Of a DNA stretch of 32,000 nucleotides, positions 9,001 through 11,463 are shown piece after piece. The stretch is from Actinomycetes bacterium (GTDB lineage Bacteria > Actinomycetota > Actinomycetes > Mycobacteriales > Mycobacteriaceae). Where the stretch lies: NCBI GenBank assembly GCA_023460175.1, contig JAEWRC010000104.1, positions 52,470 through 84,469 of the forward strand, in the 5' to 3' direction. Positions within the stretch are counted from its first letter, which is position 1, and every line of letters starts with the position of its first letter. A model generated the notes under the pieces. That model saw only the letters and a program-made list of their open reading frames with translations, was not told the origin of the DNA and made no database searches. The position numbers and the translations under genes were made by a program.

Positions 9001-11463
9001 GCTGAGGCGCGGGCGCGCGCGAATGTCGCGTGGATGGCCCGGCTATCCGTCGCCGGCGCCGAGCAGGTGCGCACGTCGATAGCTGCGCTGATCGACGCCC
9101 ATCCGTTCGAGATCGGCAACGCCTGGGGTATCCCAGAGGAGTTCAGCAACAAGGCAATTCGCACGTGGCTAGAGCACAAACACGCCCGCGCCGATGAGCT
9201 GCGGTCCATCGGTCGGCGCCTGAAAAGAGGGCAACGCCAGTTTGTGGACAATGTGGACCAGGTTGAGGCCTGCCTCCGTGAAATCGATGAGGCCGTCGAG
9301 CGAGCTGGCCTGCTACCCGCGCGGTTGCTTGCGTTGGACCCTACGGAGTTTCGCGGCCCCACGGCACTTAGCGGTAACGGACGGGCCCTCATCGCGATCG
9401 GCGACGACCCGTACCGGGCGGAAAGGGTGTCGTGGCATATCGCCAGCGAGGGGATCGACCAGTTGGGGGAGAGTCTGATCAGCCCCGCGCTCGAGCAATT
9501 GCAGTTGGACCAACAGGAGACGGCGTCGGCGGCCGTCATCATCTGGGTCGGCAAGGGCTTTGCTGCTCGCCACGCGTTCTACACCGACCATGCGGCATTC
9601 CGTGCCGCCCGTGAGGCACTGGTAGAAATCGGTCCGTCCTGGCCGCCACTTTGGGGTGAGCGTGCGGTTGGGCGCTTCGCACTAGGCAACCTGAATGGCG
9701 ATGGCACTGCCGTAGATCCGCTGGACGGCAGTCCGGACGAGTCGGCCGCCGCCGACCACCTCGGCCACGTCAAGGGCCCCCAACCCGACGGTCGGCGCTT
9801 CCCGCGTGATGGCGACACCGCCGACGTCGACGTCGAAGGGCTACCGCTTTACGGAGAACCGATGGGCGTCGTGGATGAGGAAAGACCCGACATCACCGGG
9901 CCCGAGGTGCCGGGCACGGCGTTCACGCTGGCGGAAACGCCGAGTTCGCTTGACGTGGCCCAGGCGGTGGCGGACTTTACCCACGAGATGGCCGCGATGG
10001 GTGACGACGCCCCGGTGCGAGTGGTTCGCCGGGTCGGCGAGACGGGCCTGGTGGTGCGGTTGCCCGACGGGCAGGAGCGGTACCTGGAGTTCGATGTCGA
10101 TGAACTGGGCACCGATTCGGAGGGTCGTCGGTTGCTCGGGGTTACCACGCTAGGGCGTGGCGAAGCGGATCGGGTGACGCTGGATCGGCGGTCGGCGTCG
10201 GATCCGAACCCGGAAGTCGCGCGGACGCAGCGTGTCTGGCTGGTACTGCACGAGGTGAGTCACACTCTGCACGAGGTCGCGGCTGACCACCGGCAGGGAG
10301 TCGTCCGGCCCTGTCTGCGTGCCCGGACGGACGAACACGCCTACCTGTCGTTCAGGTACAACGCGGCCGACATCGAACAGCGCGCTTTCTACACTGAACA
10401 GCTCGAGGGCGTGCGGCGGGTCCTCCGGGATTTCGGCCAACCTGTCCCCACTCCGCCTTGGCAGGTCGTGGCGACCGAGCCGCCATCGTTCGTTTCCAGT
10501 GCCGGACTCCGTTCTCGGAGTTCCTTTGGTGACAGGTGGGAGCGGTCCATGGGGCGGGCGGAGGCGATGTTGTCCGCGGGTGGGCTGGAACTCGGCCCCC
10601 AGGGTTCGCCGGTGAACGAGCTAGCAGCCCTGCAGGCGAAAACCGAGGTCATCCAAGGACTGAGTGCGGCCATCGACCTATCGACCTATGACCTCGCAGA
10701 CCTGGCGGGCTACGCGGATAGGCCGGTGCTCGACGCCGCGAAGGCACTTGTGGCGGGCGATAAACAATTCTTGTTCAGACTCTTGGAAGAGGATCATCCT
10801 TCCAAGGGGTTTGTCTTCATCAAGTGCGGTATCTTCCGCAGCAAGGCGAGGGACGCTGAGGTTCACCTTTTAGGCCGCGATGATGCGGACAAGCTCATTC
10901 GGGAGCGCGCGATCTCCGTTCTCGTCGGGCAGTGGGCGATGTCCTCGAACGCGACGCCATTCTCTCACGCTTTCCAGGAGATGGCGGCGGAGGAGTTTGG
11001 TCCGACCGAGATCCATGCATGGCGATCGGCGAACTGGCAACGCGACCTGACCGACTCGCTGATCCGGGGTTGCGGACCGAGCGTCCGCCGCTTTCTGCGG
11101 ACGCAGTACGAGCTGACTCAGGACTACCTGAGGCGATGGGACATCGACACCCTTCTGCTGACGCGCGGGATGGGGTGGAGGACGTCGCTCGAAACTCCGC
11201 CGTGGGCAATGTTCGGCCATTCGGACGTGATCGATCTCCCGTTGCTCCGGCCGCTCTCTTCCTGGTCTGCTCACCCACGGGTGCCCAAGGAATTCACTGA
11301 CAGGTTTCCTTACAGTGTGGTCATCGGCATCGAGGTGCCTAGACGGGTCATTCTTTCGATGCCCCGAACCGGTATGGGCTGCCTCCACGAGTGGGAATTC
11401 GTGGTTCTCGCGAACAAAGGACGAGCCCGGCTACTGGAAACCAAACGAGGGGATGATGAGTGA
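1..11463 (+). CDS. Giant multidomain polymorphic-toxin-like protein (at least 3,820 aa visible; 5' end outside window)
   Basis: A single frame is open from nt 1, with no stop before the first in-window start (GTG 64), through to TGA 11461-11463. It contains the catalytic-motif-bearing modules listed as separate 'other' features. Every long ORF overlapping it on other frames or the opposite strand is low-complexity Arg/Pro/Ala-rich, typical of high-GC shadow ORFs. Confidence 0.9.
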   Translation, partial: RKAWGGLAQFHLLLSLREIDPVHRADYDLMLAPLSRELVFIGTIPPDEPPSDLGQAPVVGQLDDLVERARRLVPDVPNAERSGDLAAGARAEYLNYFGALDGAGFDSFGASLAAWQRLEQEQRQAWAAQSEDFPGIGGVVGREGVPARWQDAANRWRLVHRLRALYLTALVEPLSETDLAEMAALSDAVVQVEVLKDSAAVFDHRVPVYLVLFDPQTGVIGLSLGEPDVADSVVADVVDGFPWRSGSAGRYLAGLHAQRATNENTGSVASMLYYGQRLKAVRDQVDNHLRDRESTREFYNDRRPDLQQPPSAWQVQWHRYSDIAGDVAAVADRPLDVGQVLLPVLDPLRTAELNGHPLDCAQLGVRVVVGAGRDASIGDRPLWGREVAMGADGDWEPPGTYDSVAQIMGGLNDGDCAIVSIDRVDQALSPDDPVAHLIVVTHLFGLQLWLDPTQIKHEAPADHEELRAGRPIELAKHFKKYRDGDWDFSGRVQVDAIVFPGGEARRPLNGGQPAAGRGPRHPMGAELDGAPDPTPEQRFLKPDDVEDDSVEDRIVTGLVQLRDGGVENLDQELVSLTVDDSFDIGELYDRIAEHGLEADWALQDSPGGERISEKPVSDRRATIGAERDDPAHAGAHIERQRLGGVPFGDWSVILPDRIVVITPAGVTDSVMDDWVRQAVELNTAPGGSESDRLSVEYRRLRVDSAGNPVTEQRGADGEWVRTNEVLEPVAASAVPSGTLWKVADALAAQCLLVPPGIYAKSAAVGVVALFEAAAQVDRFDARIAENSATLDGLRRRAAAADAAPTAFSPEERRSLEAASRLHDTLRESRAQARTDWEQRAVRLSLDPPDMGDPATAPLPTELPALVAVADARISDVDNEIRRVESGLDELDRVGPHVQRPGAGDVDGQRATNRAQHDARRARRDALESELSDLRDQYQLEQETRAELAAAEASASTVPTDRSGPAGGGLLHRLARLQAVHGVTAAAARSEAADIENMLRTQADSHPDAAQRIGRHALIEQRLASIDTVVDNPVDRLSWRRRLADELSTFVAYGPNQLGALSSVGIPHLVMVADLSQSPETVSDRFRTLVQSHPELLAVARENTEVDVWLVDDDGTALRRTGTVQMTDTGVTMHIPDTGWQRSEDGVPAGPAVESPTDLGLTPRVIENADAPSAQEVRIAGPLVELLAGLVDRPERMYTRQLIAAAREAAARPDLPDTHFRAIDAVLTAYDTALGIDIAMSGVPTACLAAGDWPPAASTPHSESVHQTTQDANSVVEQSFPSDQRTPEPTPSPSVETQSTKTDDTDNSLSGRSVTDGAGERTLGSQNLGAAAAAVEVGTTGPEPSAVEGVSDVNEIVKGALEQREVSADDLVNPLGSAELAEVRARDNAAWWAGLSGAQRQVVTAAYPKQIGNAEGVFAADRDTANRIMLKRHRNTADRIQAKIDEGVRPSDGELKFLIRVNKLDTSLDAAAVAAEQAGVGRPLLLAFDPMEFGLDGRAVVSFGEDPYKAESVSWHVPGFTTTIDQLNGNMRNALNHLQSTLREKPGLSAASIAWIGYDAPNDSASWRVVGRKLARDGGEILYSDLRAFNAARDTWAGDGSRFTGNHIFGHSYGSAVTSYAGRDRRFGGLVDTVTLAGSPGAGPQQHARDFGIGVDNVYVASSSRDPVTALGGREPRSSGRIIGRGLGLDPAMKNFGAQRITSEFPDGMNTVGTFATHVSYYDPVTADGLVRTESLANCGRIAAGQPDRLHLEAHRTVDENPRRGPRLRTIEPAADRPLRLDAGTGVHHPRDLHNRIRLNPRWRSDNADEAQRVAAELSAVTEIDTSPDPQTADVAARSDTDAQDDRAMGDEALARRGVSADDLVNPLGSANLAAARARENALWWAMLTDVQRQALIKTYPRQIGNAEGVFAADRDTANRIMVQRYRNTADRIQAKIDEGVRPSDGELKMLIRMNKLDTSLDAAALAAERAGVGGPRLLAFDPLEFNRDGRAVVSFGEDPYKAESVSWYIPGLGTTIDKLDYAMHCALNTLQSTQYEDPILSAASIAWIGYDAPNDGHTWRGVGHKLARDGGEILYSDLHAFNAARDTWAGDGSRFTGHHIFGHSYGSVVTSYAGRDRRFGGLVDTVTLAGSPGAGPQQHARDFGMGVDNVYVVSSSRDPVTALGGREPRSSGRIIGRGLGLDPAMESFGAQRVTAEFPASMDRKDTTATHNAYFDFLQTDDPRRWLVTPDPAVRTESLANLGRIGAGGRPHLEAHRTLHIRPGRLFGSRVRTVEPAERHMLRHEDSDAQYPADRHVRHRWTPRWFVNNNCAHLVARELSAMYGREIHLVAAPARTGVPARALFEAVGSGSRFATYAEVAETLRQMLPGSSALLASSWGAGRQGGHAYLAVNVDGEIHLMDAHTGQRSGWPPHWGQDAVHRTAVGYLDANGDPVDRLDTHVDTRRALAAAGAVGHVQGHRDDADFARRQQKYRAQDPTTRWVDTRYAESLGEVVDNVVDSAGLRQLAEDLSGRYGPYCVRLESSGVDGEVFLAGEILWGGEQVGKLQRRFGRDTRGDLVAFHTGLNIDDTQFRGRGFSKAFAAELERYYMNSGVDRIETWTHGKGAYACARAGFTWDRDPVRLQKSLNSIKNGAERLAPRISDNAHAVLDHIVQRLDPEHPRLPELGDLADLAGPDEPHLGCRLLDGATVYAVKYLQGEPLSRSGFKAWLQRWIGLGGDRYGHAGKNCARLVASELSARYGRDIRLAVAPSRAGTPAWALFETVGSGARFATYAEVAETLRDMPSGSSAVLASRWSGGQSGGYAHLAVNDGGEIYHVDPHTGHRSGWPPHWGQTSVVRTAVGYLDASGDPVDSLRDVPLQLDLAAADAIGLVQALAPDFAQRQQEYRAQDVAAVAPPLEPNSAARHAGLSVEGALVDHDAELYTGDGGDVEVPLQLGVQQADALDQQGEPPAGPIGGEPPHNSGGPSDVDRVSAALDQRVAVMPTAELIDDVVHDLANAERAEARARANVAWMARLSVAGAEQVRTSIAALIDAHPFEIGNAWGIPEEFSNKAIRTWLEHKHARADELRSIGRRLKRGQRQFVDNVDQVEACLREIDEAVERAGLLPARLLALDPTEFRGPTALSGNGRALIAIGDDPYRAERVSWHIASEGIDQLGESLISPALEQLQLDQQETASAAVIIWVGKGFAARHAFYTDHAAFRAAREALVEIGPSWPPLWGERAVGRFALGNLNGDGTAVDPLDGSPDESAAADHLGHVKGPQPDGRRFPRDGDTADVDVEGLPLYGEPMGVVDEERPDITGPEVPGTAFTLAETPSSLDVAQAVADFTHEMAAMGDDAPVRVVRRVGETGLVVRLPDGQERYLEFDVDELGTDSEGRRLLGVTTLGRGEADRVTLDRRSASDPNPEVARTQRVWLVLHEVSHTLHEVAADHRQGVVRPCLRARTDEHAYLSFRYNAADIEQRAFYTEQLEGVRRVLRDFGQPVPTPPWQVVATEPPSFVSSAGLRSRSSFGDRWERSMGRAEAMLSAGGLELGPQGSPVNELAALQAKTEVIQGLSAAIDLSTYDLADLAGYADRPVLDAAKALVAGDKQFLFRLLEEDHPSKGFVFIKCGIFRSKARDAEVHLLGRDDADKLIRERAISVLVGQWAMSSNATPFSHAFQEMAAEEFGPTEIHAWRSANWQRDLTDSLIRGCGPSVRRFLRTQYELTQDYLRRWDIDTLLLTRGMGWRTSLETPPWAMFGHSDVIDLPLLRPLSSWSAHPRVPKEFTDRFPYSVVIGIEVPRRVILSMPRTGMGCLHEWEFVVLANKGRARLLETKRGDDE
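1060..1360 (+). other. Possible N-terminal papain-fold (Cys/His/Asp) module within giant ORF
   Basis: L-D-C-A-Q-L (Cys codon 1078-1080), then P-V-A-H-L-I-V-V-T (His 1306-1308), then L-W-L-D-P (Asp 1351-1353). The H..L.V....G..L.D spacing mirrors the two clearer modules at 6916-7320 and 8160-8570. This is pattern similarity only. Confidence 0.3.
3770..4080 (+). other. Ser/Thr/Pro/Glu-rich low-complexity linker within giant ORF
   Basis: The translation reads ...ASTPHSESVHQTTQDANSVVEQSFPSDQRTPEPTPSPSVETQSTKTDDTDNSLSGRS... It is locally less GC-rich than the flanks and lies directly upstream of the first hydrolase module. Confidence 0.6.
4090..5410 (+). other. Alpha/beta-hydrolase module 1 (GxSxG; DUF1023/Abhydrolase_8-like)
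   Basis: Nucleophile elbow F-G-H-S-Y-G-S (Ser codon 4831-4833), S-S-S-R-D-P (Asp 4993-4995) and A-T-H-V-S-Y (His 5149-5151), in the Ser-Asp-His order expected of an alpha/beta hydrolase. The family name is from memory and needs an HMM search. Confidence 0.7.
5569..6915 (+). other. Alpha/beta-hydrolase module 2 (tandem paralog of module 1)
   Basis: Same motifs as module 1, shifted by exactly 1479 nt for the Ser and Asp: Ser 6310-6312, Asp 6472-6474, His 6628-6630 (T-A-T-H-N-A-Y). Confidence 0.7.
6916..7320 (+). other. Papain-fold toxin module 1 (Tox-PL / glutamine-deamidase-like)
   Basis: N-N-N-C-A-H-L-V (Cys 6928-6930), G-G-H-A-Y-L-A-V-N (His 7153-7155) and I-H-L-M-D-A-H-T-G (Asp 7198-7200). 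The Cys...His...Asp order and spacing are typical of papain-like polymorphic-toxin domains. Confidence 0.6.
7530..7850 (+). other. GNAT-like (acetyltransferase-fold) module
   Basis: F-R-G-R-G-F-S-K-A-F-A-A-E-L-E (7711-7755) matches the GNAT motif A (R/Q-x-x-G-x-G/A). It is followed by ...G-A-Y-A-C-A-R-A-G-F-T-W, resembling the C-terminal ..A..Y.k.GF GNAT motif. Confidence 0.5.
8160..8570 (+). other. Papain-fold toxin module 2 (paralog of 6916-7320)
   Basis: G-K-N-C-A-R-L-V (Cys 8179-8181), G-G-Y-A-H-L-A-V-N (His 8410-8412, displaced two residues relative to module 1), I-Y-H-V-D-P-H-T-G (Asp 8449-8451). The shared G-W-P-P-H-W-G-Q...T-A-V-G-Y-L-D-A.G-D-P-V-D tail confirms paralogy. Confidence 0.6.
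8940..9620 (+). other. Truncated third copy of the hydrolase-module N-terminal half (no GxSxG)
   Basis: ...A-R-A-N-V-A-W-M-A-R-L-S...I-G-N-A-W-G-I...L-L-A-L-D-P-T-E-F...I-A-I-G-D-D-P-Y-R-A-E-R-V-S-W-H-I... aligns by eye with 4130-4700 of module 1. Similarity stops after I-I-W-V-G-K-G-F and no GHSYGS follows. Confidence 0.55.
9990..10440 (+). other. HExxH zincin-like metallopeptidase module
   Basis: W-L-V-L-H-E-V-S-H-T-L-H-E-V, with H-E-V-S-H at 10249-10263 and a further H-E four residues on. It lies about 300 residues upstream of the C-terminal toxin domain. Confidence 0.45.
10860..11460 (+). other. C-terminal ADP-ribosyltransferase-like toxin domain (R-S-ExE type)
   Basis: L-L-T-R-G (Arg 11164-11166), L-S-S-W-S (11257-11268) and H-E-W-E-F-V-V-L (E-W-E 11389-11397), in the order and spacing (about 31 and about 43 residues) of C2/C3/Vip2-like ARTs. 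The second Glu is 21 residues from the C-terminus. Confidence 0.6.

Follow-up and report, generated by a model that had tools for sequence, protein, structure and literature searches.

A stretch of 32,000 nucleotides from a member of the Mycobacteriaceae (assembly GCA_023460175.1, contig JAEWRC010000104.1, positions 52,470 to 84,469), hereafter called the window, opens within a giant open reading frame (ORF) of the forward strand. The last domain of the encoded protein, at 10873-11436, is probably a catalytically intact ADP-ribosyltransferase (ART) of the arginine-serine-glutamate (R-S-E) type, and would be the final head of a multi-enzyme effector that is linked to a locus for an ESX or type VII secretion system (T7SS). 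The basis of this proposal is formed by homology, residue conservation, fold topology and gene linkage, from which we infer enzymatic activity, the acceptor, the export route and the role of a partner protein encoded immediately downstream. The closest described family is that of DraT.

Conservation and predicted fold of the terminal domain

An exhaustive phmmer search among 1.84 billion cluster representatives yielded 1,447 relatives at E ≤ 1e-3, including 389 at E ≤ 1e-10; the family counts at least 1,447 clusters at 50% identity. The core common to the relatives corresponds to query residues 105-290, i.e., residues ~3625-3810 of the giant protein, with numbering starting at window position 1. 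Other searches returned far less. A word-indexed protein search with the last 300 amino acids of the giant ORF gave no match, whereas a 31-sequence alignment gave five proteins and the family consensus 34 usable sequences. In PHROGs, the consensus found a marginal match to a "minor head protein" only, and a genome scan with the C-terminal domain among species representatives, none of which is a close relative of the source organism, was empty. Pfam has no model dedicated to the family, no structure of a member has been solved, and no description of it was found in the searchable literature.

Conservation was analyzed in 185 aligned domain copies, taken from the best 149 of the 1,447 relatives. 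R3722, found in the context L-T-R-G, is conserved in 100% of the copies; it is followed by Gly in 94% and preceded by Tyr in 63%. In the segment P-L-S-S-W, the Pro is conserved in 98%, S3753 in 83% and S3754 in 89%. A third motif, G-x-G-C-x-x-[E/Q]-x-E, begins with the invariant G3791-x-G-C and ends with two catalytic candidates, the first of which, E3797, is Glu in 86% and Gln in 10% of the copies, whilst E3799 is present in 99%. Further invariant residues are located in the N-terminal helices (W3645, Q3659, F3666 and Y3703-x-x-T-Q). Every family-invariant residue is kept in the window copy. The exact R/SS/ExE set was found in 121 of the 185 copies, and ~19 copies are QxE variants. ExE versus QxE tunes the choice of the acceptor in C2- versus C3-type enzymes. 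In the closest subfamily, to which the relatives P0013, P0014, P0016, P0017, P0020, P0027, P0029 and P0037 belong, the last motif is mostly W-Q-x-E, versus H-E-W-E in the window, which suggests that acceptor residues vary inside this subfamily; acceptor specificity thus probably varies in the family as a whole.

An earlier note, made from the letters of this DNA, had based a C-terminal ART and a preceding HExxH module on four short motifs. All four are present in frame 1 of one ORF and, save for one codon, at the positions given: HEVSHTLHE at 10249-10275 (residues 3417-3425), the Arg of LLTRG at 11164-11166 (R3722) and E-W-E at 11389-11397 (E3797, W3798 and E3799). For LSSWS, the S-S-W-S part is located at 11257-11268 as described (S3753, S3754, W3755 and S3756), but its Leu is encoded one codon earlier, at 11254-11256. 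The distance between the HExxH motif and R3722, said to be about 300 residues, is 305 residues. By themselves, such motifs are weak evidence. HExxH occurs once in the 3,820 amino acids and at least once in 15% of composition-preserving shuffles, and alone is not significant; when the last 200 residues were shuffled, 6% of the shuffles contained a loose R..S[ST]..[EQ]xE pattern. The case depends on the homologues: the ART triad is far above chance because the same positions are conserved across the 185 homologous domain copies.

AlphaFold2, run with a 40-sequence alignment of the last 300 residues, produced a model with a mean predicted local distance difference test (pLDDT) score of 76.9 and with values above 90 in the core. 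The core alone (window 10873-11460) was modeled with a pLDDT of 93.5 and a predicted template modeling (pTM) score of 0.88. The core model consists of three N-terminal helices, a strand with the Arg, a short helix, a strand with the two Ser residues, a helix, two strands, a loop, a strand with ExE and a last strand. R3722 lies within strand E93-102, the S-S strand (E128-132) is followed by helix H137-142, and ExE starts strand E175-179. This strand order is the one expected for R-S-E ARTs. The top matches of the model in a Foldseek search of the PDB were IcmQ, TreX and TreTu, which we take to be ART folds, with cholera toxin at rank 8; all these matches were weak.

The relatives connect the domain to DraT. 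PF07357, the DRAT model of Pfam, was matched by 11 of 31 domain sequences and by 11 of 60 full-length relatives (best E 1.9e-12). Nine short relatives scored 25.1-43.8 bits, versus a cut-off of 25, over profile positions 85-254 of 256, with P0180 (43.8 bits), P0168 (40.7) and P0156 (37.7) on top. The window domain directly matches the same nine DRAT-passing proteins at 33-68 bits. It does not itself match PF07357, even at E ≤ 10, and the family consensus scores 21.1 bits, below the 25-bit cut-off. Thus, the window domain is a member of PF07357 by transitive homology only. The earlier note had pointed to the C2/C3/Vip2/SpvB exoenzymes instead. The model of that family, PF03496, was not matched by the window domain at E ≤ 10, and the single match among 60 relatives is to an unspecified part of the protein concerned. 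Since there are links to PF07357 but no match to PF03496, the affinity is to DraT, and the earlier assignment is right at the level of the clade but wrong at that of the family. The broader prediction, i.e., that the C-terminal ~200 residues form an R-S-[EQ]xE ART-type domain with an intact triad, is upheld by the family conservation, by the relatives that pass the DRAT threshold and by the ART-like strand order in the model. Likewise, R, S and E proved to be conserved among homologues, namely across the 185 domain copies.

Contexts of the family and the downstream partner

Among the 149 best relatives, 98 proteins contain one ART copy, 39 two, seven three, four four, and one contains eleven. 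In 80 of the 149 proteins, among which are 62 of the 98 with a single copy, at most 40 residues follow the last copy. Co-occurring Pfam domains are NUDIX, Phage_Mu_F, APH kinase, GNAT, DUF7178, Gln_amidase, WXG100_2 and ADPrib_exo_Tox, and the ART head is found on many unrelated trunks. Several of these are toxins of the T7SS type. The Nocardia protein P0016 combines WXG100_2 with the ART and is encoded in an island with another WXG100 toxin, YbaB, EspG and a deaminase toxin; P0037 (2,752 residues) contains WXG100_2, Gln_amidase, a glycosyltransferase and the ART; and P0013 of Actinokineospora adjoins a TNT toxin. The helical extension ahead of the core is common only to this subfamily, with matches covering query residues 20-105 in, e.g., P0013, P0014, P0016, P0020, P0027 and P0037.

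Other members belong to mobile elements. In conjugation regions of Streptomyces and Verrucosispora plasmids, the ART is encoded near TraG/TrwB, a relaxase, MobC and an integrase, often within a "NUDIX domain-containing protein". Phage members were found in the Bacillus phages SP-15 and HSE3 and, in a viral scan with the consensus, on three IMG/VR contigs; some phage members are fused to MuF or DEDDh domains. The eleven-copy protein, P0002, is a phage protein of 7,059 residues with tandem DraT-like ARTs (locus L076, 10001-31180); its gene is located between portal/intein genes on one side and genes for a DUF7178 protein, a Zeta_toxin protein, a prohead protease and the capsid on the other. It is the R-S-E counterpart of the twelve-copy histidine-tyrosine-aspartate (H-Y-D) ART protein described by Iyer et al. 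(2017; PMC5512222). These contexts bear on the suggestion in the earlier note that the C-terminal tip is a toxin warhead. It is borne out in so far as WXG100 toxins are among the contexts, but the last copy is C-terminal in only 80 of the 149 best relatives, a third of the single-copy proteins have domains after the ART, 51 proteins have 2-11 copies, and plasmid and phage contexts are found as well.

Directly downstream of the giant gene, an ORF of 84 codons starts with an ATG that shares its A with the TGA of the giant gene (TGATG). Its product is homologous to the C-terminal ~70 residues of proteins of 184-358 residues that are encoded directly downstream of the ART-tipped gene in five of five T7SS-type loci. 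BLASTP E-values range from 2e-4 to 7e-10 against these five partners (2e-9 for the one downstream of P0016), and the five match each other at 1e-32 to 1e-84. A hidden Markov model (HMM) of the partners detects the 84-residue product at E 3e-10 over profile positions 122-187 of 192; in three of three plasmid loci, it detects an ORF just upstream of the ART gene. Altogether, partner and ART are neighbours in the window as well as in each of the eight further loci read, and start and stop codons overlap in the window and in loci L069 and L075. This strong gene linkage fits a toxin/immunity pair. The partner family has no match in Pfam, and the N-terminal two-thirds of the usual partner protein are not encoded elsewhere in the window. 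Fused forms, such as P0041, P0059, P0073, P0108 and others, carry the partner domain, recognizable by the pattern NExWLRTxxWD...LDELW...PxWxPAP, in the same polypeptide as the ART. Since the partner domain is sometimes fused to the ART, it is not settled that it should be called an immunity protein; such fusions point to an accessory domain, or to an inhibitor that acts within the molecule, more than to a classical free immunity protein.

Two further ORFs follow on the same strand (Table 1). Neither matched a library (Pfam, NCBIfam and PHROG in the case of the 177-residue product) or resembled any ORF of the related loci that were compared; both may represent further immunity genes or genes of an orphan cassette. 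Further downstream, genes for WhiB, EspG, PPE, PE and EccA1 are present, as well as one for a ParA/MinD-like ATPase near the EccA1 gene (stretch 24239-27239); together, these constitute an ESX neighbourhood of the mycobacterial type and indicate the Mycobacteriaceae as the source. The EccA encoded here shares 71% identity with EccA of the Mycolicibacterium arabiense plasmid pJCM18538, a MOBF plasmid (NZ_AP022592.1). Beside its ESX locus, the M. arabiense plasmid encodes a 9,434-residue "toxin glutamine deamidase domain-containing protein" (L072, 9270-37574) and a 3,473-residue hypothetical protein (L071, 8140-18561). These were considered as orthologues with alternative tips and rejected: BLASTP with 200-residue segments gave no similarity at E < 1e-5, and neither an ART nor the HExxH module was found in them. 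No orthologous trunk with a different tip was found in the genome scan of species representatives with the C-terminal domain or among the M. arabiense giants. Giant multi-domain proteins beside plasmid ESX loci may nevertheless be a recurring theme. No relaxase, type IV secretion system (T4SS) or phage genes were identified in the window.

The giant protein and its other modules

Frame 1 is free of stop codons from window position 1 to the final TGA, which accounts for 3,820 codons in the window (G+C content ~65%). No stop codon interrupts it at the left edge or in the next 4,628 nucleotides (1,542 codons) upstream; the protein therefore comprises at least 5,362 residues, and the intact reading frame exceeds 16 kb. 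A public scaffold, scaffold_40 of ENA ERZ28597669 (204,764 bp), was reached via a 1,500-residue gene call, the last 300 residues of which are identical to the query. It is 100% identical to the window, except that a gap of 100 N replaces window positions 4813-6500, inside a tandem repeat. This repeat is a duplication of ~1.5 kb in the giant gene (4066-6906) and encodes hydrolase modules; its copy number thus depends on the assembly.

Several disparate enzyme domains are combined in the one polypeptide: two Abhydrolase_8 modules, which are 79-85% identical at the protein level, two Gln_amidase domains, the HExxH module and the ART. A weak GNAT-like stretch (E 0.097) lies between the two papain-fold Tox-PL1 domains, and internal repeats revealed a Tox-PL1 remnant at 9640-9789. 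The Tox-PL1 domains may be extra toxin heads or processing peptidases. Upstream of the window (L004, 3-4628), two GGDEF-like modules (GGDEL and GGDRI) were noticed; one Pfam GGDEF stretch had an E-value of 0.008, below the cut-off.

Table 1. Positions of the features in the window (empty cells: no entry)
Feature	Position	Strand	Evidence
3' part of giant ORF	1..11463	+	Translation; identity to public scaffold on both sides of gap
Two tandem alpha/beta-hydrolase modules, residues 1356-1800 and 1852-2302	4066..6906	+	Pfam Abhydrolase_8 (E 9.6e-46), internal repeats
Two papain-fold Tox-PL1 / glutamine-deamidase domains	6871-7425 and 8095-8667	+	Pfam Gln_amidase (E 2.2e-17, two stretches); repeats
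Degenerate third alpha/beta-hydrolase copy	8911-9615	+	Internal repeats
HExx[H/D] module, residues 3296-3488	9886..10464	+	Homology to Nonomuraea ORF copies, 90 matches in 60 loci
Pro/Ser-rich linker, low predicted order	10465..10626	+	pLDDT <50 for query residues 1-16; no homologues align
Helical N-terminal extension, residues 3543-3624	10627..10872	+	Common only to T7SS-type-toxin subfamily; pLDDT 47-63
DraT-like R-S-ExE ART core (predicted), residues 3625-3812	10873..11436	+	Homologues, conservation, DRAT matches in relatives, AlphaFold2 model
Catalytic candidates R3722; S3753/S3754; E3797-W-E3799	11164-11166; 11257-11262; 11389-11397	+	
84-residue partner ORF, candidate immunity/accessory protein	11463..11717	+	BLASTP, partner HMM
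177-residue ORF, Cys-rich near N-terminus, after partner ORF	11727..12260	+	ORF list
513-residue ORF after partner ORF	12359-13900	+	
WhiB	14262-14657		
EspG	19430-20242	-	Precomputed annotation, same contig
PPE	20239-21315	-	Precomputed annotation, same contig
PE	21371-21667	-	Precomputed annotation, same contig
EccA1	24239-26188	+	Pfam T7SS_EccA1_N (E 2.6e-110)

The HExxH motif belongs to a module with a β-rich N-terminal half, HEVSH at 10249-10263, an invariant Cys at 10312-10314, an invariant Glu, that of DEHAY, at 10333-10335, and a PxPPW linker at its end. It aligns with two copies in a 3,674-residue ORF of Nonomuraea gerenzanensis (E 3e-7 and 1e-5). Scanning with patterns plus tblastn brought up 90 matches, spread over 60 loci of, among others, Nonomuraea, Microbispora, Microtetraspora, Streptosporangium and Kribbella. 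The motif is covered by 66 copies, among which the first His is present in 66, the Glu in 65, the Cys at +21 in 65 and the Glu at +28 in 65, with the H-E invariance being partly circular as the scan patterns required H-E. HExxH is not conserved across the module family: of 64 copies, 18 have the second His and 46 have Asp instead, which makes HExx[D/H] the family signature. Similarity to peptidases was non-significant (Peptidase_M48 E 0.022, DUF6782 0.097 and BepA 0.2) and confined to the active-site helix. The window copy, which retains HExxH and the DEH residues, could plausibly be a metal-dependent hydrolase.

The ORFs that bear the module are giant themselves (>2,000-4,000 residues in 12-kb loci; L007, 31-11055, and L008-L067). 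Copies lie ~2,020 residues apart in several Nonomuraea loci, and in many loci the ORF continues for ~2,000 residues past the module. Where ORFs end soon after it, the tails are mostly one conserved region ending in CxCPxxxPCxCGxR, and none is an ART. The idea that these tails are variable toxins was rejected for this reason, and so was the idea that the module travels with the ART, as it is absent from 182 other ART-family proteins, a set composed of 149 out of 150 listed relatives and the finds of the word-indexed searches with the alignment and the consensus. The earlier note had proposed a zincin that releases the toxin tip. The module itself is real and recurrent, but a role as a releasing peptidase for the ART is weakly supported, given the HExx[D/H] signature and the absence of ARTs among the other tails, and is not backed by the architecture. 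Processing could equally well be due to the Tox-PL1 domains, since some domains of this kind at internal positions act as releasing peptidases (Zhang et al., 2012; PMC3482391).

Proposed function and relation to known systems

The proposed ART would function as follows. R3722 on strand 1 and S3753/S3754 on strand 2 would bind NAD+, and E3797-x-E3799 at the start of strand 5 would transfer ADP-ribose to a target protein, with the ExE form suggesting arginine as the acceptor. The giant protein would deliver several enzymatic heads, the last of which would be the DraT-like mono-ADP-ribosyltransferase. Because of the hydrolase, papain-like and other modules of this protein and its PE/PPE/EspG/EccA neighbours, the domain most likely acts as an exported effector or toxin, and proteolysis may set it free. 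The product of the translationally coupled 84-codon ORF would most likely attach to the ART and protect the producer from it. Deployment as a T7SS toxin that kills competitors is favoured by the closest subfamily and by the ESX genes.

Several observations weigh against this proposal. The window copy does not match any model in Pfam, NCBIfam or PHROG. In the PDB, single-sequence and profile searches with the window copy found no match beyond chance (a phosphorylase, MRE11 and a catenin), and Foldseek found no significant match to the model (best E 0.12). No secretion signal was seen in the analyzed part of the giant protein, the N-terminus of which lies beyond it. Many relatives are part of polyvalent proteins of plasmids or phages instead of toxins. 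Furthermore, the partner in the window corresponds to only the C-terminal third of the usual protein, and in 14 of 137 copies with room for it the partner domain of ~70 residues follows the ART immediately as an in-frame fusion, an arrangement not usual for immunity proteins.

Some of these points feed other explanations. The absence of matches to curated models, the degenerate repeat remnants in the giant gene and the truncation of the partner ORF relative to its homologues would also be seen if the motifs were a chance pattern or the domain a dead relic without an enzymatic role. With every family-invariant residue kept, a highly confident AlphaFold2 model and a reading frame intact over more than 16 kb, this is highly improbable. 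It is also improbable, albeit less so, that the domain is an NAD+ glycohydrolase, i.e., an NADase toxin, rather than a protein ADP-ribosyltransferase. ART-fold toxins that solely hydrolyse NAD(P)+ exist (PMC13285283). A TNT NADase toxin adjoins one family member, and no target is known, but R-S-E enzymes that modify proteins typically have the complete R / S-S / ExE set. The alternation of Glu and Gln at the first catalytic position, which is associated with tuning of the acceptor, would make little sense in a pure NADase. Besides, the nearest family, DraT, is an arginine-specific transferase (PMC8120803). The proteolysis envisaged above might be carried out by the HExxH module (9886-10464) itself, if this module is an active peptidase of the zincin type and severs the ART head from the rest of the protein. 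Processing by zincins has been proposed for polyvalent proteins (PMC5512222), the invariant Glu 28 residues past the first His of HEVSH gives a gluzincin-like spacing, H, E, C and E are (near-)invariant in the 66 copies, the sole weak matches are metallopeptidases aligned on the active-site helix, and at least 11 giant ORFs resemble the one in the window in that 275-470 residues separate the last module from the stop. Yet 46 of 64 copies have Asp in place of the second His, the H-E invariance was in part forced by the retrieval patterns, no similarity is significant, and no structure could be predicted for the module. Its absence from the 182 other ART proteins, the mostly uniform non-toxin tails elsewhere and the many ORFs that run on for ~2,000 residues argue in the same direction, which leaves such a cleavage unlikely.

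A stronger competitor, though still the less probable explanation, leaves the enzyme as proposed but changes its deployment: the giant protein would serve a mobile element as a "polyvalent" effector, which enters a recipient or host cell together with the DNA and reprogrammes host proteins so as to favour establishment rather than to kill competitors. Several unrelated enzyme modules in one polypeptide would suit such an effector, as would the members in Streptomyces and Verrucosispora conjugation loci with their NUDIX fusions, the phage members fused to MuF or DEDDh and the eleven-copy phage head-module protein. The nearest EccA is plasmid-borne, and that plasmid encodes the 9,434- and 3,473-residue proteins by its ESX locus; a ParA-like gene is present in the window; and both the concept and a precedent for multi-copy ARTs are provided by Iyer et al. 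(2017; PMC5512222). However, no relaxase, T4SS or phage gene accompanies the giant gene in the window, polyvalent ARTs have been described as being of the H-Y-D rather than the R-S-E type (PMC5512222), and the closest subfamily, which shares both the N-terminal extension and the downstream partner, is found on WXG100 toxins in toxin islands. The reading as an exported, ESX-linked effector or toxin is preferred. If the domain is active, it would represent an ADP-ribosylating effector in a mycobacterial lineage, encoded beside a type VII locus, where few toxin substrates have been characterized. The conserved partner domain offers a direct handle on inhibition or immunity, and the E/Q switch at the first catalytic Glu predicts differences in acceptor specificity among family members.

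Among known systems, DraT is an arginine-specific R-S-E ART that modifies Arg101 of the Fe protein and has no solved structure (PMC8120803). It has the R-S-E clade and the ExE motif in common with the window domain, relatives of which score above the DRAT cut-off. In contrast to DraT, the window copy scores below that threshold and lacks a nif context, and its family is embedded in giant, toxin or mobile-element proteins and often repeated. No DraG-type ADP-ribosylglycohydrolase was found among the window ORFs scanned; a different partner family of ~190 residues is present instead. The C2/C3/Vip2/SpvB exoenzymes of PF03496 share the triad of R, S-[ST] and [EQ]xE and a helical N-terminal region ahead of strand 1, but the window domain has neither a PF03496 match nor a significant structural match to solved members of that family.

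That R-S-E ART heads are present on actinobacterial T7SS toxins is already known, and such tips form an established class (PMC3482391). Like the Tox-ART-RSE polymorphic toxins, the window protein is a large multidomain actinobacterial protein with a C-terminal R-S-E head and an adjacent small gene, WXG100 N-termini are found in relatives of its domain, and Tox-PL1 domains are present in the same polypeptide. The listed signature of Tox-ART-RSE, i.e., RxDxR, S, [DN]xN and E, and its listed immunities, Imm41 and ADP-ribosyl glycohydrolase (Zhang et al., 2012; PMC3482391), are unlike those in the window, however; the window-type partner domain is sometimes fused to the ART, and no trafficking domain was seen in the analyzed part of the window protein, the N-terminus of which lies beyond it. 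In the searchable literature, no mention was found of how large the DraT-related family is, of the partner domain dedicated to it, or of the occurrence of the family in polyvalent proteins of head modules. Tentatively, and with somewhat less than even confidence, the DraT-like ART and its partner of ~70 residues may be viewed as one undescribed two-part module, with the partner beside the ART or fused behind it, that uses three delivery routes in Gram-positive bacteria, i.e., WXG100/T7SS toxins, conjugative-plasmid proteins and polyvalent proteins packaged in phage heads. In the window, the module would form the last head of an ESX-linked mycobacterial protein with several enzymes and more than 5,300 residues; DraT would then be a domesticated offshoot of this toxin family.

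The resemblance to polyvalent proteins consists of many unrelated enzyme domains per huge polypeptide, one to many ART copies, and location in phage head or conjugation loci (PMC5512222). The copy numbers are similar, with 11 ARTs in P0002 versus 12 in the Pseudomonas example of Iyer et al. (2017; PMC5512222). According to that survey, the ARTs of polyvalent proteins are of the H-Y-D type (Tox-ART-HYD2), and R-S-E ARTs of the Alt/VIP2 kind are absent from genuine polyvalent proteins (PMC5512222). If the view of a two-part module with three delivery routes is true, R-S-E ARTs, such as those of the DraT-like family represented in the window, would genuinely belong to polyvalent proteins, at odds with what the 2017 survey states (PMC5512222).

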